A DNA stretch of 64,000 nt from Alphaproteobacteria bacterium. GTDB lineage: Bacteria > Pseudomonadota > Alphaproteobacteria > JAAXGF01. Shown one piece after another: positions 25,383 through 64,000 of this stretch; position 1 is the first letter of the stretch; every line of letters starts with the position of its first letter. The stretch covers positions 1,056,001-1,120,000 of the forward strand of contig CAUVXB020000002.1 in NCBI GenBank assembly GCA_963555825.3. Reading direction: 5' to 3'. The position numbers and the translations under genes were made by a program. Under the pieces are notes generated by a model, which was not told the DNA's origin, ran no database searches, and was given only the letters and a program-made list of their open reading frames with translations.

Positions 25383-25385
25383 CTT

Positions 25386-44647: not shown

Positions 44648-44740
44648 GGACCGGGAACCTCGGTGCAAAATCGGTGGCGGCAACCTTCGCCGCCCAAGGC
44701 TATATAGGCCGCGACGCCATGGGACGCCAGCTTCGGGTGA

Positions 44741-45799: not shown

Positions 45800-45886
45800 G
45801 GCGGAGCTCCCAGGACGACCGGGTCAGGCGCTGAGCATAGCGCGCGCCGCCGGCCGCGACACCCCCCGGCCACGCATGGCAGCCGG

Positions 45887-46099
45887 TCACTCCCAGATCG
45901 GCTTACCGCTCCCCGGCAACCCATAGGCCGGCCATTTCTCGGTCACGGTGCGGACGATGCCTTCCGAAGCGCCGAAGCGCTGGGCGACCGAGAGGTTGGC
46001 GCTTTCGAACAACACCGCGTCGGCGGCGTCGAGGCCCGCCGCGACGGCGTGGCGCACGAGATCGTCAAGCAGGGCGAGGGGATCGAAGGGCTGGGGCAT
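45887..46099 (-). pseudogene. In-frame chimera of a diverged pmbA 5' fragment and a diverged ubiD 3' fragment
   Basis: DDLVRHAVAAGLDAADAVLFESANLSVAQRFGASEGI resembles the PmbA N-terminus; [22 protein letters not shown] resembles the UbiD C-terminus. Confidence 0.85.
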
Positions 46100-46406
46100 C
46101 AGAAGACCGCTGGAACTGTGAATGTCGCCCGCCGTATATAAGAGAGTCTGCACCGATCAGCAACCAACCAATGCGGATTACGCTATTCCTTGTCTCGGGA
46201 TCGAAATCTTTGTGAAGCGACTCTTTCGCGAAGGTATCGCGGAAGGCTCTCGCGAATCTCCGGCGGCATGGCATCAAGAACCTTGGCACTCAAAGGCCGA
46301 GTGCGTTTCTCCTCGGGCAAATACTCTTGAGAAAGAATCAACCTGAAGTCATCAAGTCTCTTGGACAGCGAATCGATTCTCTCAAAGATTGAAGTGAGTT
46401 CCCGCT

Positions 46407-47584
46407 CTAGTGTCCCGATTCCGAAGTTCGCATGATTTTCGCCTGCTGTTCAGCGATTTCGATTGTTCGGAGGCAGGGCTGGATGGCGCTCGGATGTCAT
46501 CGGCGGATTTGGTCCATTTGAAGGGTTTGGGGTTCTGGTTTGCGTGTCGATGTAGTCGAGGATGGTGCGCTCCAACTCCTTGGTGGAGCGATGGACGCCG
46601 CGCCTGATCTGCTTGTCGGTCAGCAGCCCGAACCCGCTCGACCTGGTTCAGCCAGGAGGCGCTGGTGGGTGTGAAATGGGCCTGCCAGCGCGGCCGTTTG
46701 GCGAACCAGTCGCGGATCGCCTTGGTCTTGTGGGTCCCGTAGTTGTCCATGACGATGTGGATGTCGAGATCAGCAGGGACGTTCGCCTCGACGAGGTCGA
46801 GGAATTTGCGGAACTCTCGGGCCCGATGGCGCGGGAAACATTTGCCGATGATCTCTCCCGTGGCGATGTCGAGGGCCGCGAAGAGAGAGGTCGTGCCGTG
46901 GCGCTTGTAGTCGTGGCTGCGCCGCTCCGCCTGCCCGGGGCGCATCGGCAAGAGGGGCTGGGAACGGTCCAGGGCCTGGATCTGGCTCTTTTCGTCGACA
47001 CAGAGAACCAGGGCACGATCCGGCGGCGCCAAATACAGACCGACGATGTCGCGGACCTTCTCCACGAAGAAGGGATCGCTCGACAGCTTGAAGGTCTCCG
47101 AGCGATGCGGCTGCAAGCCGAAGGCCCGCCAGATGCGATGAATGGTCGAGGGCGCGTGGCCGCTCGCCCGCGCCATCGAGCGAAGGCTCCAATGGGTCGC
47201 GTCCGGCGGCGTCTCTTCCAGCGTCAGCCGGACCGCTTCCGCGATGGCGTCATCGCCGATTTGACGCGGCGCGCCGGGGCGGGGTTCGTCGTACAGACCG
47301 TCGAGGCCCTCCGCCGCATAGCGGCGACGCCACTTGCCCACGGTGTCCGCGCTCGCCTCGAGACGAACGGCGATCTCCTTGTTCTCCAACCCTTCCGCCG
47401 CCGCCAAGACGATCCGAGCCCGCCGCGCAAGCCCCTGCGACGTCTTGCGACGACGAGACAGCGCCTCCAATTCGGCGCGCTCGTCATCGCTCAAAGAGAT
47501 CGTCACCGCCACTCTCGCCATCAATCGCGCCTCCTAAAAACAAATAGAGACATAATCATATCAATTTATCGATCAGGACACTAG
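46407..47584 (-). mobile_element. IS630-family element type B, copy 2, frameshifted near the 3' end
   Basis: 7 bp shorter than copy 1; small indels cluster at about 46470-46640. Confidence 0.9.
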
Positions 47585-48383
47585 CGTCGCTGAAGAGAGT
47601 TTCCCTCCTTTGAAATAGTTCTATTGTTGAGTCTTTGACAGACCCAGAAGCCAATAAAACTGTCCAGCAAATTTCTTTGAGCTCATTCTGGTCAAGTATC
47701 GCAAATTCACCGGTATGAAACTCCCTGATCTTATCAACGACCCGAACACCGATTTTCCCTCCTTTCTCAACATAGATACCTTCATCAAAATCTCCATCTA
47801 TAACGATGGGGTCACCTTCTTCTTGCTCGATAATTATTTCCATACCACGCCACTTAACGACCATCAGGTCATCGACTCCAATATCTTTCGAAGACACGAC
47901 ACCCAACCTGTGGGTGTAACAATTTCGTAACCTCACTAGAGATTGGATGTGATCTGAAAAATCGCACGATACATCGTAGCCAACACGCAATTCGTCAAGC
48001 TGTCTGGCAATCCCGTTGTAATCGAACTGATCCTTGAACTTTGGAAGATCAGCAGCAGCAAATTTTCCGGAAACAACATCCAGAATCAAACACACCCGAT
48101 ATATTTCTGACAAGAATACAGAAAACGTCTCTACAAGTTCTCGCAAGCCGTTCGACGTAACCCAGACGGCAAAATTATCTTTAAATTCATCAATATTGGC
48201 GTCAGTAACCTCTTCCGGCATTAGCTTGAGATTCATTCGGCTCTCCAAATGAAACTCTCGAAAATCTGGTCGCCTCGCTGCATTGAGTCCTAAACCGAGA
48301 AATACGTAGGTTCTTCGAACCCCACGCAACGCTATCTCGTGGATACGATCCATATTTATATGAATTTTGTGTTTATCGGTCAT
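47581..48383 (-). CDS. Low-GC hypothetical protein with an RxxxxH (HEPN-like) motif; 3' end hit by IS630
   Basis: About 270-aa ORF containing RNCYTH; AT-rich relative to neighbours. Confidence 0.6.
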
Positions 48384-48392
48384 GTACGGCCA

Positions 48393-49901
48393 TCACTCCC
48401 ACACCGGCTTGCCGCTCCCCGGCAGCCCCAGCCTTGGCCATTTTTCTGTCACCGTCCGCACCACCTCGTCGTCCATGCGGATTAGGCGGCCCCACTCGCG
48501 CTTGGTCTCGGGCGGCCATTTGGTGGTCGCGTCGAGGCCGATCTTTGAGCCCAGGCCGGCGACCGGGCTGGCGAAGTCGAGGTAGTCGATCGGCGTGTTC
48601 CGGATGATCGTGATGTCGCGCGCCGGGTCCATGCGAGTCGAGACCGCCCACATGACGTCGGCCCACGAGCGCGCGTCGATGTCGTCGTCCACCACGATGA
48701 CCCATTTGGTGTAGACGAACTGGCGCAGGAACGACCAGACGCCCATCATGACGCGCTTGGCGTGGCCGGCGTAGGCCTTCTTCATCGAGACCACGGCGAT
48801 GCGGTACGAGCAGCCCTCGGGCGGCAGCCAGAAATCGACGATCTCGGGGAACTGCTGGACCAAGAGCGGCACGAAGACCTCGTTGAGCGCCTCGCCCAAG
48901 ACCGAGGGCTCGTCGGGCGGCCGGCCGGTGTAGGTCGACAGATAGATCGGTGAGCGGCGCCGGGTGATCGCCGAGACGGTGAACACCGGGAACGGCTCGA
49001 CCGCGTTGTAATAGCCGGTGTGGTCGCCGAACGGGCCCTCGTCGGCGTAATCGCTCAGCGAGACATGGCCCTCGAGCACGATCTCGGCGGTGGCCGGCAC
49101 CTTGAGCGGCACCGTCTTGCAGCCGACCAGCTCGACCTTCTTGCCGCGCAGCAGGCCGGCGAACTGGTACTCCGACAGCGTGTCGGGCACAGGCGTCACG
49201 GCGGCGATGATGGTGCCCGGGTCGGCGCCGATGACGGCCGCCGCGGGCAGCGGCTCGCGCTTCGCTTGGCCCCAGCGGGCATGGTGCTGGGCGCCGCCGC
49301 GGTGCTTTAGCCAGCGCATCAGCGTGGTGTCGCGCCCGGTCACCTGCATGCGGTAGATACCGAGATTGTAATTGTCTTCGGGGCGCGTGCCGGGACCCTT
49401 GGTGACGACCAGCGGCCAGGTGATGAGGGGTGCGATGTCGCCCGGCCAGCAGGTCTGCACGGGCAGCGCGCCCAAGTCGATGTCGGCGCCTTCGAGCACG
49501 ACCTCCTGGCACGGCGCGGCGCCCACCGTCTTTGGCTTCATCGCCATCACGGTCCTGACCATCGGCAGCATGCCGACCGCCTCGCGCCAGCCGCCGGGCG
49601 GCTCGGGCTGCTTGAGGAAGGCGAGCGTCTCGCCGACGCCGCGCAGTTCGTGCGCCTCGCGGTCCATGCCCCAGGCGACGCGCTCGACGGTGCCGAACAG
49701 GTTGACCAGCACGGGCATGTCGTAGGCCGTGCCGTCGTCGCGCCGAACGTTCTCGAACAGCACGGCGGGGCCGCCTTCGGCGATCAGCCGGGTCTGGATC
49801 TCGGTCATCTCGAGCGCCGGCGAGACCGGCTCGGCGATGCGCACCAGCCGGCCCTCGCGCTCGAGCCGTTCGATGAAATCGCGCAAGCTGGCGTAGGGCA
49901 T
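48393..49901 (-). CDS. ubiD: UbiD decarboxylase
   Basis: [35 protein letters not shown]. Confidence 0.95.
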
Positions 49902-49941
49902 CGGCTAAACCGGATTCACGGCGCCGCGCGCGGATCGAGTG

Positions 49942-50403
49942 TCACGCGCCGGACGACGCGACCGGCGCGACCTTGAGGACGACGCTGTCGACACCGATCA
50001 CCGTGACCCGCGTGCCGGCCGGCATGTCGTCGCCCTCGACCTTCCAGGTCGTGTCGTCGACGCGGATCTTGCCCTGACCGTTGACGATCGGCTCGTCGAG
50101 CGTGAGCGTGCGGCCGACGTATTGCTCGCCGCGGCGGTTGAGCGACGGCTGGTCGGTCGCCGCCGGGTTGGCCCTCTGGAAGACCCGCCAGCCGACGATC
50201 GCCGAGATCGAAAGGGCGGCGAAGACGAGCATCTGAATCTGCCATGTCATCTCGGGCAGCACCAGCAGCAGGGCCCCGACGACGCCGGCCGAGACGCCGA
50301 GCCACAGGAAGATGGCGCCCGGCGCGAAGACCTCGATGACGACGAAGACGATGGCGGCTGCCCACCAGTGCCAGAAGACGATTTCCTCGATCACCGGAAT
50401 CAT
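49942..50403 (-). CDS. NfeD/YbbJ family membrane protein
   Basis: [13 protein letters not shown]-fold-like C-terminus, adjacent to the SPFH gene. Confidence 0.88.
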
Positions 50404-51329
50404 GCGCGGTCCTTGCCGAAGGTCTCCCGCGCGATCTCGGCGATACCGGCGATCGAGCCGATCACGCTGGACGCCTCGAGCGGCAGCAGCAGGATCTTCT
50501 GGTTATCCGATTCGGCGAAGGCGCTCAGCGTCTCGATGTATTTCTGGGCGACGAAATAGTTGATCGCCTGGACGTTGCCGCTGCCGATCGCTTCCGAGAC
50601 CATGGTCGTCGCCCTGGCCTCGGCCTCGGCCTCGCGCTCGCGCGCCTCGGCGTCGCGGAAGGCGGCCTCGCGGCGGCCCTCGGCATCGAGGATGGCGGCC
50701 TGCTTCTCGCCCTCGGCCTTGAGGATCTCGGCCTGTCGGAAGCCCTCGGCTTCGAGAATGTTGGCGCGCTTCTCGCGCTCGGCCTTCATCTGCCGCGCCA
50801 TGGCTTCGACCAGGTCGCGCGGCGGCGCGATGTCCTTGATCTCGATGCGCGTCACCTTGACGCCCCAGGGCGTCGTCGCGTCGTCGACCACGGTGAGCAG
50901 CTGGGCGTTGATGGCATCGCGCTGCGACAGCAGCTGGTCGAGGTCCATCGAGCCCATCACCGTCCGGATGTTGGTCATCGTCAGGTTGATGATGGCGTTC
51001 TCCAGGTTGTTGACCTCGTAGGCCGACTTGGCGGCGTCGAGCACCTGGAAGAAGACGATGCCGTCGACCGCGACCATGGCGTTGTCGCGCGTGATGACCT
51101 CCTGGGTCGGCACTTCGAGCACGGTCTCCATCATGTTCAACTTGGCGCCGATCTGGTCGACGACCGGCGTGATCAGGTGCAGACCGGGGCGCAGCGTGCG
51201 CGTGTAGCGGCCGAAGCGTTCGATCGTGTACTCATAGCCCTGCGGCACCGTCTTGACGCCGGCGAAGACGATCACCACGGCGAAGATCAGCGCGGCGACG
51301 ACGAAGATCGAGAAAGCGGTGAATTCCAT
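50400..51329 (-). CDS. SPFH/band 7 protein (QmcA-like)
   Basis: [23 protein letters not shown]. Confidence 0.92.
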
Positions 51330-51462
51330 GATGCGTCCCTCCGATTTGGGCATCTGCCCGGACAGCTTGCCCTATTGTGCACAGCATCGACGCCGCGCCG
51401 TCAAGGACGCGCGTCGCGCACCCGGCGACAGCGCGCGGAGCGCGTGCTAGCTTTCCCGGCCG

Positions 51463-52293
51463 ATGACCGAGGATACGCAAATCGAAAAGCTCGCCCGCGC
51501 CACCGGCTACCCCTTTCCGGCGCCGCCGCACTCGTATCTCTTCGTCAACGGGGTGGCGCACGAGATCGTCGAGCCGGGCCGCGATCCGGTACACGACGGG
51601 CGGCTGCGCGACGGCGATGCGGTGGTGCCGGCGGCCGAGCTGCTGCGCCGCCTCGATATCGTGGGCGCCGCCGGGCTCGACGACCGGGTGCCGGTCATCG
51701 CGCACGGCTCGAACGCCTCGCCCGAGCAGCTCTGGCGCAAGTTCGGCCATATCGAGGGCGGCGTGGTGATCCCGGTGATCAAGGCGTGGCTCGCCGACCA
51801 CGACGTCGTCTACGCGACCCATTTCACGCGCTACGGCGCGATACCGGCGACGCTGGAGCGCTCGCCGGGCACCTCGGTCGAGCTCGCCGTGACCTTCCTC
51901 TCGGCGCCGCAGCTGGCGCTCATGCACGACACCGAGATCGCCGCCGTCAACTACGTCTATGGCCGGCTCGACCGTATCGCCCTCGCGCTCGACGGGCTCG
52001 GCGAGCGGGACGCGGCGTTCGTCTACCTCACGCTGCACGGCGCGTTGGCGCCCGGCGGCGCGCCGCTGGCGTTGGCGGCGCGCGCCGCGCGCGACCGCGC
52101 GTTCGAGCCGCGCACCATGCGCGCCATGCTCGGCTTCGCGCGCGACGAAGTGGCGCCCGGCATGGCGCTCGACGACTTCATCCTCGAGACCGTCGCCGAC
52201 GACGACTTGCGCAGCCAGCGCACGCAACGGCTGCGCGAGCGCCACGCCCGCGCCCCCGACTTCGCCGCCTTCGAGGTGCTCGCCGAGGGCTAG
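51463..52293 (+). CDS. Hypothetical protein, possibly GGCT-like fold
   Basis: Typical high-GC codon usage; VIAHGSNASP resembles the YGSN motif. Confidence 0.6.
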   Translation: MTEDTQIEKLARATGYPFPAPPHSYLFVNGVAHEIVEPGRDPVHDGRLRDGDAVVPAAELLRRLDIVGAAGLDDRVPVIAHGSNASPEQLWRKFGHIEGGVVIPVIKAWLADHDVVYATHFTRYGAIPATLERSPGTSVELAVTFLSAPQLALMHDTEIAAVNYVYGRLDRIALALDGLGERDAAFVYLTLHGALAPGGAPLALAARAARDRAFEPRTMRAMLGFARDEVAPGMALDDFILETVADDDLRSQRTQRLRERHARAPDFAAFEVLAEG

Positions 52294-52327
52294 GGCCTGG
52301 TTGGATCCATGACGATCGGTCGGTGCT

Positions 52328-53119
52328 CTAGTCGGTCAACTGAATCGCATCGCCCCGACGGACCACGCCTTCGCGAACGACCGCACCGTAAATCCCGGCC
52401 AACCCGCCGTGACCCCTTGCGACCTTCCGCAGCACCCGGGGATCGGCTTCGGCGGTGTCCGGGTCGAGCGTGATCATCTTGCAGCGCGGATCGCGCGCGA
52501 CGACGGTGAGCCGCACGTCGGAACCGATAGCGAGAGTTCGGCCGACGAGCCCGTCTTCGTCGAAACCCTCGCCAGACTCGAGGTTCATATAGACGTTCGC
52601 CCTGAAACGCCGGGGATCGAGCGCGGCGCTGATCTCGTCGCCAAGCTGGTCGACGGTTTGCGTGGCGATGAGCGAAACCGGGCGGCAGTCGGTCAAGGCG
52701 CGATCCGATCTCAAGAGGCTGACCTCGTGGGCGTCGTCGAGACCGTGGCGAAGCGCGGCGATCAGCGCGGGATCATCGATCGCCAGGACCTCTCCCGACG
52801 GCGTTTCGACATCGACGGCGAGATTGTCCGGATCGTCGAAGCAGGCGTTCAATCCAGGCGCCTCGTGTGCCGCTTCGGCCCAGTTGACCGGCTTCGCGGC
52901 GAGGTCCGGCTTGCGGAACCTAGGCTCGAACAGCAGCAACCGGGCCTGCTCGCGCCCGGTCAGATAAGGGAACACCTTCGCGCAAGCCGTGCTCTTGAAG
53001 GCGTAGATGCGGTCGCCGTAGATGCCGGAGAAACTCACATAGGCCTCGGCCAGCGCCTCGCCGCGCATGCTCTTGACCGGATAGCGCCACAGGCCGTCGA
53101 CCTTGCCGATCGTGCTCAT
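52328..53119 (-). CDS. MOSC domain protein
   Basis: RYPVKSM, GDR, RRFRAN, RCKMITLDP. Confidence 0.88.
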   Translation of the reverse strand: MSTIGKVDGLWRYPVKSMRGEALAEAYVSFSGIYGDRIYAFKSTACAKVFPYLTGREQARLLLFEPRFRKPDLAAKPVNWAEAAHEAPGLNACFDDPDNLAVDVETPSGEVLAIDDPALIAALRHGLDDAHEVSLLRSDRALTDCRPVSLIATQTVDQLGDEISAALDPRRFRANVYMNLESGEGFDEDGLVGRTLAIGSDVRLTVVARDPRCKMITLDPDTAEADPRVLRKVARGHGGLAGIYGAVVREGVVRRGDAIQLTD

Positions 53120-53222
53120 ATCCGCTGCTAACCCCTCACCTCGATGCCGCTGCGCGATGAGTATAGCGAACGTCGGTCCCAAAGACAGATTGCGATCAAT
53201 GGTGGCGTTCAACGAATGTAGG

Positions 53223-53956
53223 TCAGTCGCCGATATCGGGCGACATCGGCGCGGCGCCCAGATATTCGACGGCATAGGGGCCATCGCCGCGCGCGGCGAC
53301 GTGGCGCGCCATGTCGCCGCCGGCACGCGGCTCGCAGAGTTCGAGAACGTGGGGCCCGATCGCGAAGCTAGCGTCACGGCCTCCGCCGCCGCCACGCCGG
53401 GCGTTGGCTCGGTCCCGAGCAGCGCCGCGTAGTCGCGCGTCGCGCTGTCGAGGTCGGCGACCGCCAGGGTCAGGCGCGCCAAGCCGCGAACGCCGTTGGC
53501 GTGGACCCTGGCATTTCCCGCCGGCACGCGAACGGTGCGCTCAGTGACGTCCTCGATTAGAAAAGGCAGCGCGCCGCCGGCCGGCGCCGGGCCGTCCCGC
53601 CAGGCGACCTCGACGCCGTCGGGGCGGATGCGCGTACCCGCCACCGGCGCGCCGTAGTCGACGCCGCGCGCGTACGCGGCAGCAATGTCGGCCGCGACGT
53701 CATCCGAGGTCAGCATGAATTCCGAGAGGCCACCGCCCGCCTCGAGCATCGCCCAGCGGCGCGTTTCGGGCGCTGGCTCCCAGAACGCGAGCAGTTCGAT
53801 ATAGGCGCCGTCGGCGAACGGCACCAGCGCGTTGTGCGTCGCCCGCGCATGCCGGCCGCCGGGCGTCACCGTGAAGCCCAGCGCGCGGTACTCGGCCGTG
53901 AGCGCGTCGAGATCGCGGCCGATGACGATGACGTGGTCGATGCCCGTGATGGCCAT
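53223..53956 (-). pseudogene. VOC/glyoxalase-like protein with an apparent frameshift near 53380
   Basis: IDHVIV, GGRH..THNAL..YIEL; the C-terminus (IGPHVLEL...RGDGPYAV) continues in another frame. Confidence 0.65.
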
Positions 53957-54067
53957 CGTCGGAGTATGGAATAGCTGGCCGATCGCCGGATACGACATTC
54001 ATTTGCCTTGTGCTAGCGTTGATGACCCATGGCAAATTTGTGCCGAAATTCTGTCGGGAGGAGCGCC

Positions 54068-54481: not shown

Positions 54482-54508
54482 TCGGGGCGCGCCCTCGACT
54501 CGCCGAGT

Positions 54509-55263
54509 TCACTCAGGGTCCTCGAACAACTGCGGCCAGATGGCGTCGATATCGCGGTCGCCATGGCCATCGGCGATGCGCTTGGTCAGATGTGCCTTGA
54601 GCGGCTCATGAAATGCGTTGTCGACACCGAGCGCGTCCGCCTCGCGAAGCACCACGTCGAGCGCGGCGGCATAGATCGACAGCGTTGCGGCGACGTCCTT
54701 ATCTCTTTCGCGCAACATCTGTCCTCAGGCGTTCATCGACTCGACGGCGTCTTCGGCAGCGTAGCCGGTGAACAGCTCGATCGGTATGCCGCGCCTTTCG
54801 GCCATCGCCGCACCGTGGAAGTACGACATCACACAGCCGAAGAAACTCGAGATGACCGCCGCGCCGACTTGGGTCGAGAGAAACCCCGGCTCGGCGTCGA
54901 AGGCCTCGAAGATGCCGAGATGCGCGTCGAACAGCCGCTTGGGGCCGGCGTAGACCAGGTTGCCGGCGCCCTTCAGTACATACATCGGGTAAGTGAAGAT
55001 GAAGGCGCCCAGAAATCCGACGCCGTTCGCCGCCGCCCAGGCGGCCAGCGCCTCGACCTCCGCCGATGTCGTCATGGCGGTCTGCACGAGCGTCTTGCCG
55101 CGCAACGCCGCCGCCACGCCCTCGGTCTCAAGCACCGAGAGTGTCGCCGCGTGGTCCGTTAGATTGACGATCACCAGATCGGCGGCCTCGGCGACCTCGG
55201 CCGGCGACGACGCCACCATCGCGCCCAACGCCTCGAGCGGAGCCGCCTTGGACGGCGTCGGTG
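54509..55263 (-). pseudogene. 5'-truncated NAD(P)-dependent beta-hydroxyacid dehydrogenase/imine reductase-like gene with an in-frame TGA at 54725
   Basis: TPSKAAPL..GA..ASSPAEVAEAADLVIV; no GxGxxG; frame continues past the TGA. Confidence 0.65.
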
Positions 55264-55317
55264 GGGGTTCAAAACTGGACCCGACTGAAGTACCGTCGGC
55301 AACAAAGGACAAATGCC

Positions 55318-55698
55318 ATGACACGGATATTCGCGGCCGCCGCGCTGATGCTCGGGTTCGGATTGCCGGCGTTGGCTGGCTCGGACGCCGCCCTCGACGC
55401 CGAGATGGTGACGAGCGACGGGGACCTGCAAACGGCAATGAGGGCGATCTACGAGAGGGCCGGCATCTACAAGAGAGAGGGCGGCCTCGCCGGCGGCGTC
55501 TCGCAGGCCGTGATCGAATCCTTCGGCAACATCACCGTCTTGCATGTCGCCGGCAACATCGTGACGCTCGAGGCAAGCTTCCGTTGGACCCTCGACGACT
55601 CACAGAAGACCGGATCAGCCACCGGCATCTTCACCATGGAATCCGACGGCACGTCCTACAAGGCCCTCAAGCTCGAGACCGGCGGCAAGACCTACTAG
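55318..55698 (+). CDS. Small secreted hypothetical protein
   Basis: RBS aagga and signal peptide ...LPALA. Confidence 0.65.
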   Translation: MTRIFAAAALMLGFGLPALAGSDAALDAEMVTSDGDLQTAMRAIYERAGIYKREGGLAGGVSQAVIESFGNITVLHVAGNIVTLEASFRWTLDDSQKTGSATGIFTMESDGTSYKALKLETGGKTY

Positions 55699-55712
55699 CC
55701 CGAGGATCGAGA

Positions 55713-56498
55713 TCAAAACGACGACAGAAAGTCCTCGGCCAATCGGTTGACGCGGTCGGGGAACTCCCAGGCCGGGAAACCGCCGGCGTCGGCGATGGTC
55801 GCGCGCCTCACGCGCGGCAGCAGCGTTTCGAGACGGTCGGCGGTGTCGTTGAAGTCGTCGACGTCGTGTTCGCCGTTGTAGAGCAGCACGGGCACCTCGA
55901 GCGACGCCAAGCGTCCGTCGATCGGCGCGACTGGCGCAGCTTGGCCGGCGTCGAGCCAGGGCGCGCCGGAGAACGACGCGACGATCGCCCAATGGGCCGC
56001 CGCGCGGCATTCCTCGGGGCGTGAGCGCATGACGTCGAACCAATCCGCCTCGTCGAACCACTGCCGGCGCGCCTCGGCGACCCCCGCCGTCCTGGCGGTG
56101 TCGCGGGCGCGTGCGAGTTCGCGATCGACGCTCGGCATGGCGTGGCCGGGCAGCACCGCGCCTTCGAGGATCATCGAGCGGAAGCGGCCCGCTCGCTCGG
56201 TGGCGAGCAGCAGGCCGAGCGCGGTGCCGGTATGCGTCGCCCAGTAATGGCACGTCTCGACCCCGGCGTTGGCTATAGCGCCGGCGACATGGGCGGCAAG
56301 TTCGCTGTGCCCGAATGGCCCGGGCACGTCGCTCGAGAGGCCGTGGCCGGGCAGGTCCACCAAGAGGATGCGGTAACGCGCCTTGAACGCCGCGACCTGG
56401 GCCGAAAACACCCGATGGTCGCCCGACATGCCGTGGACCATGACCAGCCACAGCGCTCCGTCGCGCGCCTCGAGGACCGTCTTGTAGCGCGCTGCCAC
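55713..56498 (-). CDS. Alpha/beta hydrolase-fold protein
   Basis: VHGMSG, DLPGHG; atypical nucleophile elbow ATHTG. Confidence 0.8.
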   Translation of the reverse strand: MAARYKTVLEARDGALWLVMVHGMSGDHRVFSAQVAAFKARYRILLVDLPGHGLSSDVPGPFGHSELAAHVAGAIANAGVETCHYWATHTGTALGLLLATERAGRFRSMILEGAVLPGHAMPSVDRELARARDTARTAGVAEARRQWFDEADWFDVMRSRPEECRAAAHWAIVASFSGAPWLDAGQAAPVAPIDGRLASLEVPVLLYNGEHDVDDFNDTADRLETLLPRVRRATIADAGGFPAWEFPDRVNRLAEDFLSSF

Positions 56499-56835
56499 GC
56501 TATTCAATTACCCGTCCGGCGACGATGTCGGTCTAGACGATCAGGCATAGAATTCGTCGAGTGCCAATCGGTGACATGGGCTACTTCAGACCCCAAAGCC
56601 TTCGTCTGATCTCAGAGCACAACGGTTCCCATCCGGATCAGAGAACTCAGCGGTCGTTCCCCATTCGTAGTGGCTTACTTCGATGGTCACACCTTTGCTC
56701 CTCAACTCGGTGCAAACCGCATCGACGTTCGGCACATTGAAGCGAAACTTTGTTGGGCATTGGTCGATGGGTTTAACATTTGAGTGCGAATAACCGCCAG
56801 TCTCGATCATCAGGTAGACGCCGCCCAGTTCAAAG

Positions 56836-57590
56836 CTTGCCTATCCGGTTATCACCCACACCCACTATATGTAGTGTGTCTCCTTGGACTGCAGGCAAGG
56901 GCCGGCGCAGGCGCATTGAGGAGGCGATCCGGCTAATTCTTGATTGTTCTGAAAACCGAACCGGAGTTTAATTCACGTCACGTACTTAACATCGGGGGAC
57001 GGAACGGTGGCGACCAAGGGAAAAACGAAGAAACCCACGGCCAGACGGGAAGCTGCTGATGAAACGACATCGTCTGAGCGATTGACGGCACTAGTCGAAG
57101 AAAGCGACGCGCTGGCACGAATCGTTGCGAAGAACCCGTCCGCGCCTGTTAGTCTCCTGCGCGTTTTGAGTCGCAGCGAAGACGAAGCGACACGCAAGAA
57201 CGTGATCCTCAATCCGTTTACTCCATATGACGTATTGAGCGAACTTGAAAACCAGTTCACAGAGCTATTTGTGAATAATCCGGCACTCGAATCCTACAAT
57301 TCAATGAAGCTCTGATTTCCTGGAATATTCCATCGGTGTCGTTCACCTCCGATTTCAGATAAATTTCAATGAAGTGACGGTCCTTTATGCAACGTGGCGT
57401 TTTGCCAAATCCGACTCAATGATTAGGATTTCCACCACGCTAAAGTGTCGCCTAAAAGCCGCTACAATGCCGTCCGAGTCCCTGCTCGGCATCGCCGGAG
57501 ATATCTCCGCTTCGACCTGCACCGAGCTTTACTCAGGAAAATGGGTGCACACTACATATAGTGGGTGTGGGTGATAACCGGATAGGCAAG
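56836..57590. mobile_element. Non-autonomous transposon with perfect 43-bp TIRs and 8-bp TSD GTTCAAAG
   Basis: TIRs at 56836-56878 and 57548-57590; TSD at 56828-56835 and 57591-57598. Confidence 0.93.
57007..57315 (+). CDS. Passenger ORF with leucine-rich-variant (LRV)-like repeats
   Basis: VAKNPSAPVSLL..LS and VILNPFTPYDVL..L. Confidence 0.55.
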   Translation: MATKGKTKKPTARREAADETTSSERLTALVEESDALARIVAKNPSAPVSLLRVLSRSEDEATRKNVILNPFTPYDVLSELENQFTELFVNNPALESYNSMKL

Positions 57591-57750
57591 GTTCAAAGCA
57601 CGTTAATTGCTCGCCAGGTCGATTTATCTCGAAGAGGAGATCCAATCCGAGAATGTCGCCGTAGAAATTTACGCATTCTGGATATTTCTCGGTGTAAAGA
57701 ATGAGTCCAGCCTTGGAGAAATCCATGAGTCTACTCCGGGTATCCTCGGA

Positions 57751-57802
57751 CAAGTGAATACTTGATAAAATATGCGAGGCTTTTTAGTCAAGTGAAAACT
57801 TG
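57751..57802. promoter_or_regulatory. Tandem palindromic operators CAAGT-N4-ACTTG
   Basis: caagtgaatacttg (57751-57764) and caagtgaaaacttg (57789-57802) upstream of the glyoxalase gene. Confidence 0.55.
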
Positions 57803-57979
57803 GTATATTATGATGACACGGGCAACCGACGTTAAGACGGCTGGATGAAGTGCTAACCAGCGCTCATATGACGGAGTGCGAATAATTTCAGTGCGTTAGT
57901 ATTGCCGTATGCGGAAAGGATGTTCCCCCTAGGCGCAAAATCCATCCATCTGTCGGCAATTGGCGCACGCGCTGCCACG

Positions 57980-58903
57980 CTAACCAATCACCCGTCCGGC
58001 GACGATGGCGGCGAAGACGATCAGGCCGAGCCATTTGTTCGACTTGAATTTAGCCAGGCAGTCGGCCGGCGCGTCGATGTCGACCCGCGCCGCCTGCCAG
58101 GCGAGCTGGGCGGCGGCCAGGCCGAGGCCGATATAGAACGGCCAGGCGAGACCGGCCAACCAGCCGGCGACGCCGATCAGGGCGGCGGCGGCGCAATAAA
58201 AGGCGTAGAGCCAGGGCCGGGTCGCCTCGCCCAGCCTGCGGGCCGAGGACTTGACGCCGATCAGCGCGTCGTCCTCTTTGTCCTGATGCGCATAGATCGT
58301 GTCGTAGCCGAGCGTCCAGGCGATGCCCGCGGCGTAGAGCGCGATTGGCGGCGCATCGACGGTCCCGGTCACCGCCGCCCAGCCCACCAGCGCGCCCCAG
58401 TTGAAGGTCAGGCCGAGCCACGCCTGGGGCCACCAGGTGATGCGCTTCATGAAGGGATAGAAGCCGATCAGCGGCAGCGAGGCGATGCCGAGCCAGATCG
58501 CCACGGTGCCGAGCTGGACCAGGATGGCGAAGCCAATCGCGAGCAGAACGCCGAGCAAGACGAGGGCCTGGGTGAGCGAGACGTCGCCGCTCGGCAGCGG
58601 CCGTGTCGCGGTGCGCGCGACGCGGCCGTCGATGTCGCGGTCGGCGATGTCGTTGACCGTGCAGCCGGCGCCGCGCATGACCAGCGCGCCGACCGCGAAC
58701 AACGCCATGAGCCACGGGTCCGGCCAGCCGGGCGCGGCGAGCGCCAGGCTCCACCAGCACGGCCACAACAGCAGCCAGGTGCCGATCGGCCGGTCGAGCC
58801 GCATGAGCCGGGCATAGGGCCGTACCGGCGCCGGCGCGTAACGGTCGAGCCAGCCGCCGACCGCGATGTCGGTGCGCGCTGCTGCCTGGGCGATCTTGGG
58901 CAT
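57980..58903 (-). CDS. ubiA: 4-hydroxybenzoate polyprenyltransferase
   Basis: RLDRPIG, NDIADRDID, YDTIYAHQDKEDD. Confidence 0.95.
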   Translation of the reverse strand: MPKIAQAAARTDIAVGGWLDRYAPAPVRPYARLMRLDRPIGTWLLLWPCWWSLALAAPGWPDPWLMALFAVGALVMRGAGCTVNDIADRDIDGRVARTATRPLPSGDVSLTQALVLLGVLLAIGFAILVQLGTVAIWLGIASLPLIGFYPFMKRITWWPQAWLGLTFNWGALVGWAAVTGTVDAPPIALYAAGIAWTLGYDTIYAHQDKEDDALIGVKSSARRLGEATRPWLYAFYCAAAALIGVAGWLAGLAWPFYIGLGLAAAQLAWQAARVDIDAPADCLAKFKSNKWLGLIVFAAIVAGRVIG

Positions 58904-58916
58904 GGTAGGCTCCACT

Positions 58917-59675
58917 ATGCGAGACGTTCCGCCACGCCGTCAACGCGCGCCCCGCCTGTTCGTCGACGCGCCGCTCGCCGCCGGGGCGGCGCTCGCGCTC
59001 GCGCCGCCACAGGCGCATTACGTGACCCGGGTGATGCGCCGCAAGCCGGGCGATGCACTCATGCTGTTCAACGGTCGCGACGGCGAATGGCGCGCCGAGA
59101 TCGAGGCGGCGCGCAAGGGCTGCGCGGTGAACGTCGTCGAATGCAGCCGCGCGCAGGCCGCCGGCCCCGACGTCTGGCTCGTCTTCGCAGCCGTCAAGCG
59201 CGCGCCGATCGACCTGATCGCCACCAAGGCGACCGAGCTCGGCGTTGCCGCCCTGTGCCCCGTCACCACACGGCACACCGCGGTCGGCCGCGTCAACCTC
59301 GACCGATTGCGCGCCAACGCGGTCGAGGCGGCCGAGCAGTGCGGCCGCCTGGATGTGCCCGATTGCCGCGCCCCAGCCGCGTTCGACGACCTGATCGCCG
59401 GCTGGCCGGAAGGGCGCCGTGCCCTCGTGTGCGACGAGACCGGCGGCGGCGCGCCAATCGCCCAGGCGCTCGCCGAGGCCGCGCGCGAGCCCGCGACGCC
59501 CTGGGCGATCGTTTCCGGACCCGAAGGCGGTTTCGCCGACGATGAAATCCGCGCGCTCACCGCGTTGCCGGGCGCGCTTCGCGTCGGCCTCGGCCCGCGC
59601 ATTCTGCGCGCCGAAACCGCGGCGCTCGCCGCCCTCGCCTGCTGGCAGGCTGCGCTCGGCGATTGGTCCGCCTAA
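58917..59675 (+). CDS. rsmE: 16S rRNA m3U1498 methyltransferase
   Basis: KATELG, EAAEQC, GPEGG, ILRAETA. Confidence 0.95.
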   Translation: MRDVPPRRQRAPRLFVDAPLAAGAALALAPPQAHYVTRVMRRKPGDALMLFNGRDGEWRAEIEAARKGCAVNVVECSRAQAAGPDVWLVFAAVKRAPIDLIATKATELGVAALCPVTTRHTAVGRVNLDRLRANAVEAAEQCGRLDVPDCRAPAAFDDLIAGWPEGRRALVCDETGGGAPIAQALAEAAREPATPWAIVSGPEGGFADDEIRALTALPGALRVGLGPRILRAETAALAALACWQAALGDWSA

Positions 59676-59837
59676 CGTGTCGCCGCGTCTATTAAACATA
59701 AGCAGTATATATTTAATTCGCTCAATGGCCTTCGTCGGGGCGCTCCGGCTTGGACGCGACACGTCCAATCGGCAAGAAAATATATACTGCTTACAATTAT
59801 CAGGGTGGCTGCTGCGCTCGGCGACTGGCGCGATTGA

Positions 59838-60308
59838 CTACAGATCGAATTCCAACCGGGGGCCGATCTCGGTGAAGCCATAGCGCTTGTAGAAGTCGAC
59901 CGTGCGCTGCCAGCGCGGCAGATCGGGCGCGCCGACTTCGATCATGCGCTAGCCGCGCGCGCGGCCGAACGCGGCGGCGGCGTCGGTCAGCTTGGCGGCG
60001 ACCCCGGCCGAGCGATGGTCGGGCCGGACGTAGAGCTCGGAGATCTCGCCGAATCGGCCACGCGCGTAGATCGCGGCGCATTCATTCAGCGTCAGCACGC
60101 CGATCGCCCGGCCGTCCCGGGTTTCCGCCAGATACGCCCAAACGTCGTCGCCGCCCAGCAGCCCGGCGGCGACCGGCATGAGCTCGTCGACGGTCAGGGT
60201 CCCGGCATAGGAGGGCACCAGCTCGAGCAGCAATTCGAACACCAGCGTGGCCACCGTCGCGGCATCCTCGGGCGTCGCCTGGCGGACGGCGATGTCGGGC
60301 GTGGTCAT
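59838..60308 (-). pseudogene. GNAT acetyltransferase with an in-frame TAG at 59949
   Basis: ELYVRPDHRSAGVA...RARG*RMIEV...FYKRYGF. Confidence 0.8.
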
Positions 60309-60319
60309 CGCCGGCCTCC

Positions 60320-61663
60320 TCAATACGGCCCCGGGACGATCTCGCTGCCGTCGAAGAAGCGCGCCGGGCGGAAGCGGGCGAGGTCGTGGCCGACTGGGCG
60401 GCCGGTCAGCAGGTCGGCCATGACGCGGCCGATCGCCGGGCCGATGCCGAAGCCGTGGCCGCTCAGGCCGGTCGCGTGGTAGAGCCCCGGCAAACCGGGT
60501 TCCTCGCCGAGGGTGGGCACCGCGTCGGGCGTCACGTCGATCATGCCGGCCCAGGCCTCGGCGAGCTTGACGCCGGCCAGCGCGGGAAAGCGCCGGGGCA
60601 GGCGGTCGACGATGCGCTTGACGACGAGCGGCGAAGGCGCCGGGTCGAGCACGCGCATGCGCTCGAACGGGCTCACGGCATCGGCCGACCAGCGGCGCGG
60701 CGTGCCCCAGGCGCCGGGATAGCCCTTGGGCGCGGCTGGGTGCAGATGCACGTCCTTGTCCGACGTCCTCATGACCTTGAGGAACTTGACGAAGTATTTG
60801 AACGAGTCGGGCGACAGATAGTGGTCGGCTCCGTCGCCGGTGGCGACCGTGTAGCCGCCGTCGGCCCGGCGCCGCAGCGCGAGGCCGGGGGTCGAGAGGT
60901 TGTTCTCGTAAGGCGCCGCCGGCGCCGGCTCGGTGCGCGCCGCGGTCGAGCGGACCGCGAGCTGCGGCAGGTCGACGCCGGCGTTGGCCGCGAAATGGCT
61001 CGACCAGACGCCGGCGGCAAGCAGCACGCGGTCGCAGCGCACCCGGCCCCGCTCGGTCACGACGCCGGCGACGCGGCCCGCGGAGACGTCGAGCGCGCGG
61101 ACCGCGCAGTCTTCGATGACGATGGCGCCCGACCCGCGCGCCGCCCGGGCGAGCGCCGGCACCGCGACCGATGGCTCGGCGCGGCCGTCGGTCGCGGTCA
61201 CCATGGCGGCGATCCAATCGCCGCCGAGACCGGGGAAGCGCGCCGCGACCTCTTCCTTGGTGAGCATCGCGGTGTCGAGCTGGTGCTGTTTGGCGAGCTC
61301 GTGCCAGCCCTCGTGTTTGCCGAGCTGCGCTTGGTCGTCGATCAGATAGATGCAGCCTGAGGCTGTGAAGGCGAGAACGGCCTCGCCGGTCTCGGCCGCC
61401 AGGCCGCGCCAGATACGGTTGGCCTCCATCATGATCGGCAGCTCGGCCCGGTCGCGGCCCTGCTGGCGCACCCAGCCCCAGTTGCGGCTCGACTGCTCGC
61501 CGGCCACGCGGCCCTTCTCGCAGAGCAGGACCTTGGTCCCGTGGCGCGCCAGGAAATAGGCGGTCGCGGTGCCGGCGATGCCGGCGCCGACGATAGCGAC
61601 GTCGACTGCCTCGGGCAGCGCGTCGGCGAAGGCGATGGGTGAGCGCTCGGTGATCGTCGGCAT
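60320..61663 (-). CDS. FAD-dependent oxidoreductase (DadA/DAO family)
   Basis: GAGIAG, QSSRNWG, SGHGFGIGP. Confidence 0.9.
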   Translation of the reverse strand: MPTITERSPIAFADALPEAVDVAIVGAGIAGTATAYFLARHGTKVLLCEKGRVAGEQSSRNWGWVRQQGRDRAELPIMMEANRIWRGLAAETGEAVLAFTASGCIYLIDDQAQLGKHEGWHELAKQHQLDTAMLTKEEVAARFPGLGGDWIAAMVTATDGRAEPSVAVPALARAARGSGAIVIEDCAVRALDVSAGRVAGVVTERGRVRCDRVLLAAGVWSSHFAANAGVDLPQLAVRSTAARTEPAPAAPYENNLSTPGLALRRRADGGYTVATGDGADHYLSPDSFKYFVKFLKVMRTSDKDVHLHPAAPKGYPGAWGTPRRWSADAVSPFERMRVLDPAPSPLVVKRIVDRLPRRFPALAGVKLAEAWAGMIDVTPDAVPTLGEEPGLPGLYHATGLSGHGFGIGPAIGRVMADLLTGRPVGHDLARFRPARFFDGSEIVPGPY

Positions 61664-61952
61664 GCGGCCGTCTCGCGCCTTTCGGGAAGCTGACTGGGGT
61701 TGGGGTGTACCGCCGCCCGGGTCGGGCGGTCAACCTTCGCCGGTCTCGACGACGCCGTCGGCGGCCGGCCGGTTGACCTCGCCGGCGCCGTAACCGAACG
61801 AGCGTCTTCGGATACCGGATTGCACCCTGGCCGGATCTCCGACGCACCGAGCGCCCCATCCCAAGACCCCGTGTAAGTTGTAGAATAAGAATTTAAATGA
61901 AACTACGGTCGTGCTACCGTCTTGGGCGCTTGGGAGGAATCATCTGGGAAAT

Positions 61953-62004
61953 CCCGGAGAAAGCCTCTCGCGCGAAGACCCGGAGAAAGCCTCTCGCGCG
62001 AAGA
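61953..62004 (+). repeat. 26-bp perfect tandem duplication
   Basis: cccggagaaagcctctcgcgcgaaga twice, directly before the RBS of the next gene. Confidence 0.9.
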
Positions 62005-62017
62005 AAGGGGTATCGAC

Positions 62018-62917
62018 ATGAACGCAATCACATCAGGAATCTATGGCGGCGGGCCATTCTATTCGGGTGGATGCGCCGTCATCGACGATCTGAAAGGCTC
62101 GGGATATACCACGGTGGTCGCCTGGGCCGTCCATGTTAAAGCGTCGGGCGACCTCGTCTTCAATGACCCGACCATTGTCAGCCGCGGCCAGTACGTCGGC
62201 GATTCTGCCTGGCCGGGGCTCCTTGCGGCGCTCAAGCAGGGCGCCACGTCCGTGAACCGGCTTCTGATTTCCATCGGTGGGTGGGAAGTCGGGGACTTTC
62301 CCAACGTCAAAGCCCTGATTTTCCCCAACCCGGGCAATTATCCCGACAATCCTCAAATAGGTTCAAACACCATACTCTATCAGAACTTCCAGGCGCTGAA
62401 GAACGCCATCCCGACCATCGATGGCGTCGACTTCGACGACGAGACGCTCTACGACCAGCCAACCACCGTCGCGTTCAGCCAAATGCTGAACACGCTTGGT
62501 TACCAAGTGACATTCTGCCCGTACACCAACGTTTCCTTCTGGGTCGATTGCCTTTACCAACTCAACACCGCGACGCCAAACCTTGTAACCGGCTTCAACC
62601 TCCAGTGCTATGCCGGTGGAGCGGGGAATGATCCTCAGCATTGGATCACGGCCATTCAGGAAAAAATGGTCAGCGGTTTCGATGCCAAAGGGTTCGTCTA
62701 TCCGGGCCTCTGGTGCATCCATAACGGCTGCGATTCCGGCGACTGCCCCGACAGAATCTCCAGTCAGTTCAGCTCTTGGCGGCCCGACGGCATCCAAGGC
62801 GGGTGGATCTGGCTGTACGACGACATTCAGAAATGCGAGGACTCGGCAGCCTGTGGTTCGGGTGTCTCAATGAACGCCGCCGCTTACGCCAGCGCGATCG
62901 TGACCGGTCTAGGGTAA
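62018..62917 (+). CDS. GH18-like glycoside hydrolase
   Basis: ISIGGW and DGVDFDDE (DxxDxDxE); lower GC. Confidence 0.7.
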   Translation: MNAITSGIYGGGPFYSGGCAVIDDLKGSGYTTVVAWAVHVKASGDLVFNDPTIVSRGQYVGDSAWPGLLAALKQGATSVNRLLISIGGWEVGDFPNVKALIFPNPGNYPDNPQIGSNTILYQNFQALKNAIPTIDGVDFDDETLYDQPTTVAFSQMLNTLGYQVTFCPYTNVSFWVDCLYQLNTATPNLVTGFNLQCYAGGAGNDPQHWITAIQEKMVSGFDAKGFVYPGLWCIHNGCDSGDCPDRISSQFSSWRPDGIQGGWIWLYDDIQKCEDSAACGSGVSMNAAAYASAIVTGLG

Positions 62918-63027
62918 ACGATCACATTGCCAGCGGCGCCGAACCAGTCGTTGCACCCGACCGGAGTTAGCGGTCGGAAGTGGTCCTGAAATCAACGTAA
63001 CTTGCCGCGCCTTTCCGGTCGCCGGCT

Positions 63028-64000
63028 TCAGCCTTCGCCGGTCTCGACGACGCCGGCGGAAACCAGGCGGTCGACGTCCTCGGACGCGTATCCCAACAGG
63101 CCCTCGAGGATCTCGCGGCTGTGCTGGCCCAGGTTCGGCGCCGGGTTGGCTGGCAGCTCGGGTGCCGCCGACATATGCGGCGCCGAGCGCGCGAAGCCGA
63201 AGCTGCCGAATTCGGGATCCTCGATCGGCATGATCATGCCGCGTGCCGCCACGTGCGGGTCGGCGAAGACGTCTTCGGCGTTGTAGATCGGGCCGCAGGG
63301 GATGCCTTGGGCGTTCAGCGTCTCGACCGCCTCGTCGCGGCTCAGCGTGCCGAGCCAGTCCTTGATGACCGGTTGCAGAAACTCGACGTTGGCCGAACGC
63401 GCGGTGCCCGAATCGGCGCGTTGGTCCTCGATCAGGTCGTCGCGCCCCATGGCGGTGCACAGCCGCGCCCAGATGATGTTGTCGGGGATGTTGATGGCGA
63501 TATAGCCGTCTTTGGCCCGGTAGGCGCCGCGCGGCCACAGGTTGCGCGGCTTGCCGCGTTCCGGGCTCTGGCCGGCGACCGAATAGAGCGCAATCATGCT
63601 TTCGTTGAGCGCCAGCATGTTGTCGAACATGGCGGAGTCGACCAATTGGCCCTGGCCGGTGCGTTCACGCATGAACAGCGCCTGCATGATGCCGTAGGCG
63701 GTGACCTGGCCCGAATAGATGTCGGCCATGCCGTAGATCGTCCAGGACGGCGGCTTGTCGGCGAAGCCGACCAGATTCATGATGCCGCTCATCGCCTCGG
63801 CGACGATGTCGAAGGCGGGCCGGTCGCTGTACGGGCCGCGGTAGCCCTCGAGCCGGCCGAAGCCCGAGATGATCGACCAGATCAGGCGCGGGTGCTTGGC
63901 GCGCATCTCCTTCTGGCCAAGGCCCATACGCGTCATCGAGCCGGGCCTCAGGTTCTCGACGACGACGTCGGCGGTGGCGGCCAGCCGGCGGAACACCTCC
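63028..64000 (-). CDS. CaiB/BaiF CoA-transferase (family III), partial
   Basis: ADVVVENLRPG, ISGFG, PAFDIVAEAMSG, APNLGQHS. Confidence 0.92.
   Translation of the reverse strand, partial: EVFRRLAATADVVVENLRPGSMTRMGLGQKEMRAKHPRLIWSIISGFGRLEGYRGPYSDRPAFDIVAEAMSGIMNLVGFADKPPSWTIYGMADIYSGQVTAYGIMQALFMRERTGQGQLVDSAMFDNMLALNESMIALYSVAGQSPERGKPRNLWPRGAYRAKDGYIAINIPDNIIWARLCTAMGRDDLIEDQRADSGTARSANVEFLQPVIKDWLGTLSRDEAVETLNAQGIPCGPIYNAEDVFADPHVAARGMIMPIEDPEFGSFGFARSAPHMSAAPELPANPAPNLGQHSREILEGLLGYASEDVDRLVSAGVVETGEG

Follow-up and report, generated by a model that had tools for sequence, protein, structure and literature searches.

The stretch analysed here, referred to as the window, comprises 64,000 nucleotides from an Alphaproteobacteria bacterium (GenBank assembly GCA_963555825.3, contig CAUVXB020000002.1, positions 1,056,001 to 1,120,000 of the forward strand), in which the genes ubiD, ubiA and a caiB-family CoA transferase are each followed by a short cargo and then by a diverged copy of the gene's own 3' end. 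These arrangements are interpreted, with moderate confidence and from sequence comparison, as scars of one-ended capture of a related species' chromosomal DNA by homology-facilitated illegitimate recombination (HFIR) or a similar process. The architecture is known; the novelty lies in polarised cases between species that affect housekeeping genes and seem to be dense within a single lineage. Five main cases were considered: the three in the window, and ubiD and ubiA in L061, the closest genome (89% UbiD identity in a single scan of genome contigs), which was selected by UbiD similarity alone. The closest relatives (P-numbered) were known from proteins only, and DNA context was taken from fetched loci (L-numbered).

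Repeats at three gene ends

Comparison of the window with itself located the repeats after ubiD, ubiA and the caiB-family gene on the minus strand, where the earlier note had placed them, and the three gene names were upheld by Pfam and NCBIfam. The ubiD pair (48393-48461 and 45887-45955) is 80% identical over 70 columns (E value 2.5e-8), the ubiA pair (57968-58026 and 56488-56546) 88% over 59 columns (9e-14), and the caiB pair (63028-63097 and 61730-61799) 77% over 70 columns (9e-8). The distal copies measure 59-72 nt and are 75-88% identical to the 3' end of their own gene. They had been described as including the stop codon; the ubiA repeat extends 12 nt beyond it. The ubiD remnant has its true beginning at codon 480 (45958), where it joins a diverged copy of the 5' part of pmbA that had been overlooked.

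Curated gene ends (n = 41) were compared with their own downstream 4 kb, using internal segments (n = 345) as controls. The ubiD, ubiA and caiB ends scored 62, 83 and 60, and the next best end scored 31. A score of at least 50 was thus reached by 3 of 41 gene ends and by none of the internal segments (maximum 44), so that the repeats exceed chance within the window. Additional controls taken upstream or on the opposite strand (n = 81) gave a maximum of 32. When a cruder gene caller was used, 1 of 37 internal window controls reached 50.

All three are direct repeats longer than 30 bp that span less than 20 kb and enclose no mobility gene, later insertion sequence (IS) insertions being set aside. 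The cargos are of lower G+C content than the window, as previously noted (0.43-0.58 versus 0.66, the window as a whole having 66%), and their net lengths of approximately 1.25, 0.66 and 1.23 kb, after subtraction of an IS630 copy and an IS1595-like element, agree with the earlier estimate. The claim that no integrase is present was borne out as well: no integrase or recombinase family was matched in the 46 main open reading frames (ORFs) of the window or in 90 six-frame cargo frames (at least 55 aa in the window and 70 aa in L061), a screen that small decayed integrase pieces could escape. DDE transposases and one IS110 occur elsewhere in the window; IS110 as an RNA-guided cause was set aside, with no search for IS110 ends at the junctions, since reciprocal exchange would be expected of it.

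One remnant per site was found within 12 kb, and no older stacked remnants were present within 12 kb of the 41 gene ends other than an rsmE candidate described below. Among 5' stubs sought upstream of the 41 gene starts, only that of pmbA was genuine; the match at the hydrolase gene is the ubiA repeat itself, and the gapped, GC-rich matches at kdtA (score 44) and lpxK (37) were taken as chance. Rfam gave no matches in the window or in L061.

The ubiD locus

The locus is ordered ubiD, HEPN-like gene, pmbA stub joined to ubiD tail, phzF, pmbA. The body of UbiD is 93-97% identical to its six closest relatives, P0002-P0007, and nests among P0002, P0003, P0005 and P0006 in a quick tree that included these four of the six (support 92). 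At 24 diagnostic cells these six relatives matched the distal copy 19 times and the in-gene tail three times, and the translated distal copy equals P0003 at 23 of 23 residues. Residues 472, 475 and 478 of UbiD are unlike those of all six, while residue 460 is host-type. Relative to P0004, there are 11 differences in 471 residues versus 9 in the last 31 (break at codon 472; uncorrected p = 4e-7). The in-gene tail resembles relatives of an 87% group, and the last 124 nt of ubiD are 88% identical to L062 and at most 82% to the other loci. The two copies differ at 8 synonymous versus 4 non-synonymous codons, an excess reached by none of 5,000 neutral simulations; both copies must therefore have evolved as working genes in different lineages. 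Judged by these comparisons, the distal ubiD copy is the native end and the in-gene tail is foreign.

Residues 453-471 of UbiD are strongly conserved, codons 460-471 forming the last conserved block, and a homologous crossover would have occurred between codons 460 and 472 (about 48489-48521). Native codons 472-479 are absent from both copies. Because the foreign residues start 8 codons upstream of the remnant, the exchange was non-reciprocal; a single crossover with a circle, whether by integrase or RecA, would leave a remnant starting at or before the switch point.

The pmbA stub (45946-46086) aligns with native pmbA (44482-44622) at 81% identity (E value 4e-31). Its frame is open and is fused in frame to the distal ubiD copy. 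It has the residues DPLALL and GASEG in common with L062, and for one serine it uses TCG, the codon of L061, in place of the AGC of native pmbA; it is preceded by a TATATA-like motif that also precedes pmbA in relatives. From its open frame, L062-type residues and L061-type TCG codon, the stub is read as the orthologue of another lineage and not as a decayed duplicate. Since pmbA lies directly 3' of ubiD in L031, L062, L017 and L036, the stub is in the ancestral ubiD-pmbA order, from which it follows that the incoming DNA was a piece of a relative's chromosome comprising ubiD end, cargo and pmbA start. The join to the native ubiD tail shows a microhomology of 4-5 nt (ATCG, with a fifth base deduced from Asp479 of the relatives).

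The stub and the remnant together (45887-46099, minus strand) make an open, 70-codon predicted chimeric ORF that has the stub's ATG and the upstream TATATA-like motif; a promoter scan of 44600-48500 returned no sites. AT-rich third positions were tried as a marker of the donor tract and were uninformative against control genes.

The caiB, ubiA and rsmE loci

At caiB, seven of the nine closest relatives (P0243-P0249) agree with the distal copy at 5 sites at which the in-gene tail does not. At 5 further sites the distal copy is unlike the relatives, each difference being one base change away by the genetic code, and these departures are therefore ascribed to decay. The comparison supports a native distal copy and a foreign in-gene tail here also. 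At the window ubiA, by contrast with ubiD and caiB, the orthologue-like copy is the in-gene tail, which is like that of relatives at 92-96% identity. The IS1595-like element that splits the ubiA cargo has ends approximately 85% identical to ISAcr1-family ends.

A candidate fourth case is found at rsmE, whose end is followed, after an AT-rich 135-nt spacer containing a perfect 16-nt inverted repeat (59699, 59778), by a stop-aligned copy that reads ALGDWR, as do RsmE orthologues. This case has no cargo, and the pair is weak, its score of 30 being reached by 3 of 208 controls within 300 nt but by 28 of 160 within 12 kb.

The cargos themselves are varied. For cargo 1, 944 relatives were found, and an R153-x4-H158 motif, of the Rx4-6H form expected of the HEPN superfamily, is invariant in the 96 that were aligned. 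Its structure model (predicted local distance difference test, pLDDT, 94) gave top matches that are mostly HEPN domains (Z 8.6-10.2, root-mean-square deviation 3.5-4.2), Z values that lie within the range helical bundles can reach by chance. It had no Pfam, PADLOC or NCBIfam match, and Foldseek against the PDB gave nothing at E <=0.001. Cargo 1 is read as a probable HEPN-fold protein. Cargo 2 is a predicted glyoxalase/VOC gene. The ORF of cargo 3, on the strand opposite caiB, had no Pfam, NCBIfam or PDB sequence match, and its GH18-like label comes from atlas scores alone (0.95-0.98, with GH18 on 26-46% of cluster members). None of these predicted window cargos is a restriction-modification system. 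Those of L061 are of predicted defence type, the one at ubiD being restriction-modification-like.

Recurrence in L061 and other loci

In 80 fetched loci, the usual gene order is rsmE-ubiA-hypothetical-(SPFH-nfeD)-ubiD-pmbA-suhB-msbA-lpxK, and the window keeps this backbone with many additions. In L061 (6787-8156) and L031 (6344-7629), the SPFH-nfeD pair has the opposite orientation to that in the window and in L062. In L061, ubiD is followed by Dcm, a GmrSD-N protein, HEPN and Vsr (3.46 kb, 47% GC), a 56-60 nt remnant and pmbA, and ubiA is followed by Nmad3 (1.07 kb), a 33 nt remnant and the hypothetical gene that in L062 lies directly 3' of ubiA. Both remnants thus adjoin the ancestral neighbour gene. 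Empty sites are present in L062 and L031. The cargos at ubiD and ubiA are unrelated between the window and L061, and the junctions differ (ubiD codon 480 versus 484; ubiA 47 versus 33 nt before the gene end).

The distal ubiA copy of L061 reads exactly as the tails of P0147-P0150, which are 96-98% identical to the L061 body. Foreign residues 284, 288 and 290 of the in-gene tail precede the remnant start (about residue 291), and native residues 284-290 are missing. These observations support a foreign in-gene tail, a native distal copy and a non-reciprocal exchange. The 33-nt match alone scores 36, and the case is considered credible because the P0147-P0150 tails match the remnant. For the ubiD pair of L061, 7 synonymous versus 3 non-synonymous codon differences were counted, again reached by none of 5,000 neutral simulations. 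Polarity was established in three of the five main cases (window ubiD, caiB and L061 ubiA), and in window ubiD and L061 ubiA the foreign tract starts upstream of the remnant.

Among the other 78 loci, no further clear ubiD case was seen in 75 ends (two short matches scoring 34-35 were set aside), and ubiA gave 0 of 38 clear cases, that of L061 included. Among 928 other gene ends defined by a crude gene caller, 11 scored at least 40; of these, 6 were judged to be tandem paralogues, 1 a short tandem repeat and 3 orphan remnants, the three all lying at one Reyranella-type caiB locus, and 1 match was left unclassified. The affected gene ends number 3-4 of 41-44 in the window, 1-2 of 9 in L061 and approximately 3 of 928 in other alphaproteobacterial loci. 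Fisher tests gave p = 0.0016 for the window, which was chosen for the feature and is thus biased, and 0.04-0.06 for L061. An enrichment in this lineage is suggested by these counts.

Reyranella-type loci (L003, L005, L008, L009, L010 and L019), which belong to another lineage, have the same layout at the ends of caiB-family paralogues (for example L019 at 6859 and L010 at 13619, minus strand). In L010, caiB stands directly before one single gene, presumably periplasmic binding-protein-like; in L003, L008 and L009, caiB is followed by an extra copy at 71-74% identity, then by a diverged remnant of the caiB end and the original gene; and L005 and L019 have the remnant alone, 40-60 nt past the caiB stop. 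This series may reflect an old tandem duplication.

Among 121 rows, UbiA proteins P0138 and P0142 are tail-swapped and P0143 and P0146 show the reverse pattern. The UbiD pairs P0076/P0079 and P0071/P0105 switch sharply from near-identity to 20-45% difference, as in the mosaic UbiA proteins. The mosaics suggest further exchange of 3' parts between lineages, and several are on short contigs that could be chimeras.

Proposed mechanism and alternatives

The scars probably formed as follows. A linear fragment, delivered by transformation, a gene transfer agent or transduction, would enter the cell carrying the 3' part of a core gene, one or more passenger genes and, in some cases, the beginning of the core gene that follows. 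Homologous recombination, presumably RecA-dependent and in a single step, would take place within the final conserved block of the first core gene, which thereby keeps working with the donor tail. The far end of the fragment would then join at a microhomology of a few bases, tens of bases past the crossover and still within the gene, and the recipient's last 30-70 nt with all downstream DNA would be kept, moved behind the cargo and left to decay. Survivors would retain a working enzyme and every downstream gene. Selection against long foreign tracts may have kept the remnants at no more than 72 nt, and loss of long repeats is also plausible.

The earlier note had proposed a sequence-independent and integrase-free route in which a donor gene end is swapped in together with its downstream neighbour. 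The donor-end part holds for ubiD (native distal copy, foreign tail, pmbA start), for caiB and for the L061 ubiA, and finds no support at the window ubiA, whose in-gene tail equals that of close relatives. A new route is not supported: the anatomy is what HFIR predicts, and the architecture is in print (PMC2853133, PMC2935791 and PMC5361080). Nor is the route sequence-independent, because a homologous anchor in the target gene is required; it is independent merely of a fixed target site.

Several observations weigh against capture by an HFIR-type event. The window ubiA pair has 1 synonymous versus 4 non-synonymous changes, shows neutral-type decay and extends past the stop; it is unpolarised, and a close donor or an in-genome duplication would both fit. 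No synonymous excess is present in the caiB pair (3 versus 10), and the excess in L061 ubiA is not significant. The in-gene caiB tail of the window is shared by P0242 (93%), so the caiB event may predate that split. P0009 and P0011 fail to polarise the L061 ubiD pair, and distant loci fail to separate the window ubiD copies (40 versus 26 of 78 in favour of the distal copy by DNA, 33 versus 40 by protein). With 93 of 111 nt matching, native pmbA is nearer to the stub than is any of the fetched loci (at most 83), which places the donor outside the sampled genomes. Microhomology is readable at the pmbA/ubiD junction alone, the other joins being without known donor sequence, and the missing codons of ubiD and of L061 ubiA (284-290) could also result from later deletion. 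Finally, HFIR in the laboratory is rare and usually deletes approximately 1 kb (PMC3240628), and here tens of bases were lost and the remnants are at most 72 nt.

Such a later deletion is central to a two-step, integrase-free scheme, in which one RecA crossover brings in a donor piece that is circular or longer and the resulting merodiploid is trimmed to a remnant by deletion at microhomology. It would reach the same end state, pmbA/ubiD fusion included, and would account for the short remnants; circles have been proposed for tip displacement (PMC2935791), and linear DNA circularisation followed by a single crossover is known in E. coli (PMC3240628). However, an extra deletion ending within approximately 75 nt of the stop would be needed in every case, and the window and L061 contain neither a long remnant nor a complete second copy of a gene, so this scheme is regarded as rather unlikely. 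Insertion with long target duplication within one genome, whereby break repair copies 30-70 nt of target around unrelated DNA and the copies then decay, is the best fit for the window ubiA, where the repeat spans the stop, the proximal copy is host-type and the distal copy is decayed. Duplications of this kind have been published for restriction-modification genes without mobility genes (PMC2853133), and the L061 ubiD cargo is restriction-modification-like. Both repeats should then copy the empty-site sequence, whereas the in-gene copy is foreign at ubiD, caiB and L061 ubiA; neither the ubiD synonymous excess nor an orthologue-type pmbA stub could be produced; and the published repeats are 86-100% identical, versus 75-78% in four of the five main pairs. 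As an explanation of the whole set, target duplication therefore appears improbable.

Decayed integrase islands that restored gene 3' ends and lost their integrase would leave attL/attR pairs of similar geometry and polarity. The repeated use of ubiD and ubiA in two genomes, the change of other UbiD pairs near codons 460-472 and the defence-like cargo, as on islands, all speak for them. No integrase match was found in the 90 cargo frames, however, and three unrelated targets lie within 18 kb. There is no fixed crossover, as the remnant starts differ between genomes (erosion of the remnants being possible), and codons 460-471 are merely the last conserved block. The exchange is non-reciprocal, with the 8-codon gap in ubiD, and a chromosomal pmbA stub was captured. 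The ubiD insertion had no match in a phage collection, and no attP-like isolated ubiD tail was present in the phage (3 of 3) and plasmid (20 of 129) rows inspected. Such islands are considered highly improbable as the source. An assembly chimera of co-occurring related genomes would be in keeping with indel-type errors in IS copies of the window; the same in-gene tails nevertheless occur in near-identical proteins from other contigs (P0001 with 2 differences, P0121 with 1), the distal copies bear decay mutations, and the layout recurs in L061, which was assembled independently; this leaves a chimera exceedingly improbable.

HFIR-type capture might, in a stronger form, be a biased pathway of this lineage and not a rare event filtered by selection, with any gene able to pair through its final conserved block, rejoining within approximately 75 nt of the stop, and 5-20% of gene ends serving as landing sites for one-to-four-gene defence and metabolic cargo from other genera. 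This extension is considered rather unlikely. If it were true, every capture would leave a scar whose polarity and age could be read, and the genome as a whole would hold a record of integrase-free gene gain.

Comparison with known systems and significance

HFIR has been described in S. pneumoniae, A. baylyi, P. stutzeri and E. coli, with joins at 3-10 bp of microhomology (PMC3240628), and is also treated in PMC2884548. The present cases resemble it in the homologous anchor at one end, a short putative microhomology at the other, loss of recipient DNA, inserts of approximately 1 kb and lack of a dedicated recombinase. They differ in being natural events in which the anchor is only approximately 75-88% identical and recipient loss amounts to tens of bases, and in that the join falls within the anchor gene and leaves a remnant. 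Capture works alike in C-terminal displacement in rhs and type VI secretion system (T6SS) effector-immunity arrays (PMC2935791, PMC5361080), where selection acts on the exchanged tip as the payload and long arrays form. In the present cases a housekeeping gene serves as the anchor and its tip is close to neutral; the gene that follows is the payload, and each site has a single remnant. UbiD, UbiA and the CoA transferase are not polymorphic-toxin cores with an immunity gene or orphan-tip arrays.

Long target duplications, according to PMC2853133, have repeats of tens to hundreds of bases that often span a start or stop codon, and are found mostly in naturally competent species with defence cargo. 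Direct repeats spanning the stop, defence cargo and the lack of mobility genes are shared features. The published repeats were taken to be target duplications linked to restriction cleavage, whereas here one copy is foreign, identity is lower and the window cargos are not restriction systems. Fewer than half of horizontal gene transfer (HGT) hotspots encode an integrase, and for hotspots without mobile elements, double homologous recombination in the core genes on either side has been put forward as the explanation (PMC5635113). Those hotspots share with the present cases a cargo lying between core genes, recombination in the flanking gene and absence of an integrase; a double crossover, by contrast, replaces content and leaves no remnant. 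A unit of 3' end, intergenic region and 5' start has been described in tandem paralogues (PMC2568036). The ubiD case looks like a double crossover whose pmbA crossover became an illegitimate join, adding genes rather than swapping them.

Some integrative elements restore the 3' end of a protein-coding gene, for example e14 and phage 21 at icd. They likewise place a donor tail in the gene and displace the native tail distally, but they do so with an integrase, a fixed crossover and reciprocal exchange, none of which was found here. A literature search of partial coverage, which does not establish absence from print, found no account of diverged, polarised cross-species gene-end remnants at housekeeping genes.

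Double crossover explains the spread of acquired genes but not the first addition of a new gene, for which HFIR has been proposed mostly from laboratory assays or toxin arrays. Scars at housekeeping genes show direction, donor distance, crossover interval and, through decay of the remnant, age. Because the scar is easily searched, the share of gene gain by an HFIR-type route becomes measurable across genomes. A further consequence is that marker-type genes of this lineage have C-termini that are mosaic between genera.

Feature coordinates and other features of the window

Table 1. Features of the gene-end insertions and their surroundings, in window coordinates.
Feature	Coordinates	Strand	Basis or remark
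Native pmbA	43292-44647	-	Pfam, NCBIfam
phzF-family gene, recipient's downstream neighbour	44888-45799	-	Pfam
Native 3' end of ubiD, displaced; codons 480-503 including stop	45887-45958	-	Relatives' residues
Putative illegitimate junction, pmbA stub/native ubiD tail	45955-45959	-	Junction alignment
Foreign 5' pmbA stub, 141 nt from ATG	45959-46099	-	81% to native pmbA
IS630 copy, later insertion, TA duplication	46410-47583	-	DDE_3; 99% identical to 18724-19911
Cargo 1, ~270-aa probable HEPN-fold gene, GC 0.43	47584-48383	-	IS630 cuts near 3' end
Foreign-type ubiD tail, codons 472-503	48393-48488	-	Residues 472, 475, 478; L062 DNA match
ubiD, intact, native body and foreign tail	48393-49901	-	Pfam/NCBIfam
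Alpha/beta-hydrolase gene	55713-56507	-	
Distal ubiA end copy, decayed, in-frame stop	56488-56546	-	Overlaps hydrolase gene start
Cargo 2, predicted glyoxalase/VOC gene (57726 to 56586), GC 0.50	56547-57967	-	Split by later element
Non-autonomous IS1595-like element	56836-57590		~43-nt terminal inverted repeats, 8-nt target duplication (56828, 57591)
LRV-repeat passenger ORF in IS1595-like element	57007-57315	+	
Proximal ubiA repeat, 47 nt gene end and 12 nt past stop	57968-58026	-	Self-comparison
ubiA, intact, tail like close relatives	57980-58900	-	NCBIfam
Candidate fourth case rsmE, end 59649-59675, stop-aligned 27-nt copy 59811-59837	59649-59837	+	
Displaced native caiB 3' end, decayed	61730-61799	-	Residues of P0243-P0249
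Cargo 3, ORF 61922-62917, GH18/TIM-barrel-like lead, GC 0.58	61800-63027	+	Atlas scores
caiB-family CoA transferase, 5' part beyond window	63028-64000	-	Tail unlike that of most close relatives

Large additions between suhB and msbA (33133-42460) and between maoC and ribF (10851-17440) have no gene-end remnant within 12 kb. They hold IS630, IS110 and other DDE transposases, a low-GC exonuclease with NUDIX, and an adenylate-cyclase-like protein. Perfect 8-nt microsatellites (25312-25390, 25750-25865 and 27229-27357) flank an IS256-family copy at 25861-27240, near which garbled IS630 fragments lie (25386-25655), and a second IS256-family copy is inverted at 33496-34875. A TPR array with a 126-nt period occupies 34860-37050. 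Palindromic intergenic repeats resembling repetitive extragenic palindromes (REP) stand at gene ends (18572-18695, 21506-21623, 42290-42461 and 44741-44884), and other diverged repeats are located at 9582-9822 and at 17280-17402 and 33154-33276; neither group had an Rfam match. An ARAGORN tRNA-Ala call at 52040-52122 lies inside a coding gene and was taken as spurious. A stop interrupts the NAD-binding dehydrogenase gene at 54512-55438 (minus strand), and another lies within a reading frame at 59839-60309 (minus strand) that was labelled GNAT-like by eye; each is either a pseudogene or a sequence error.

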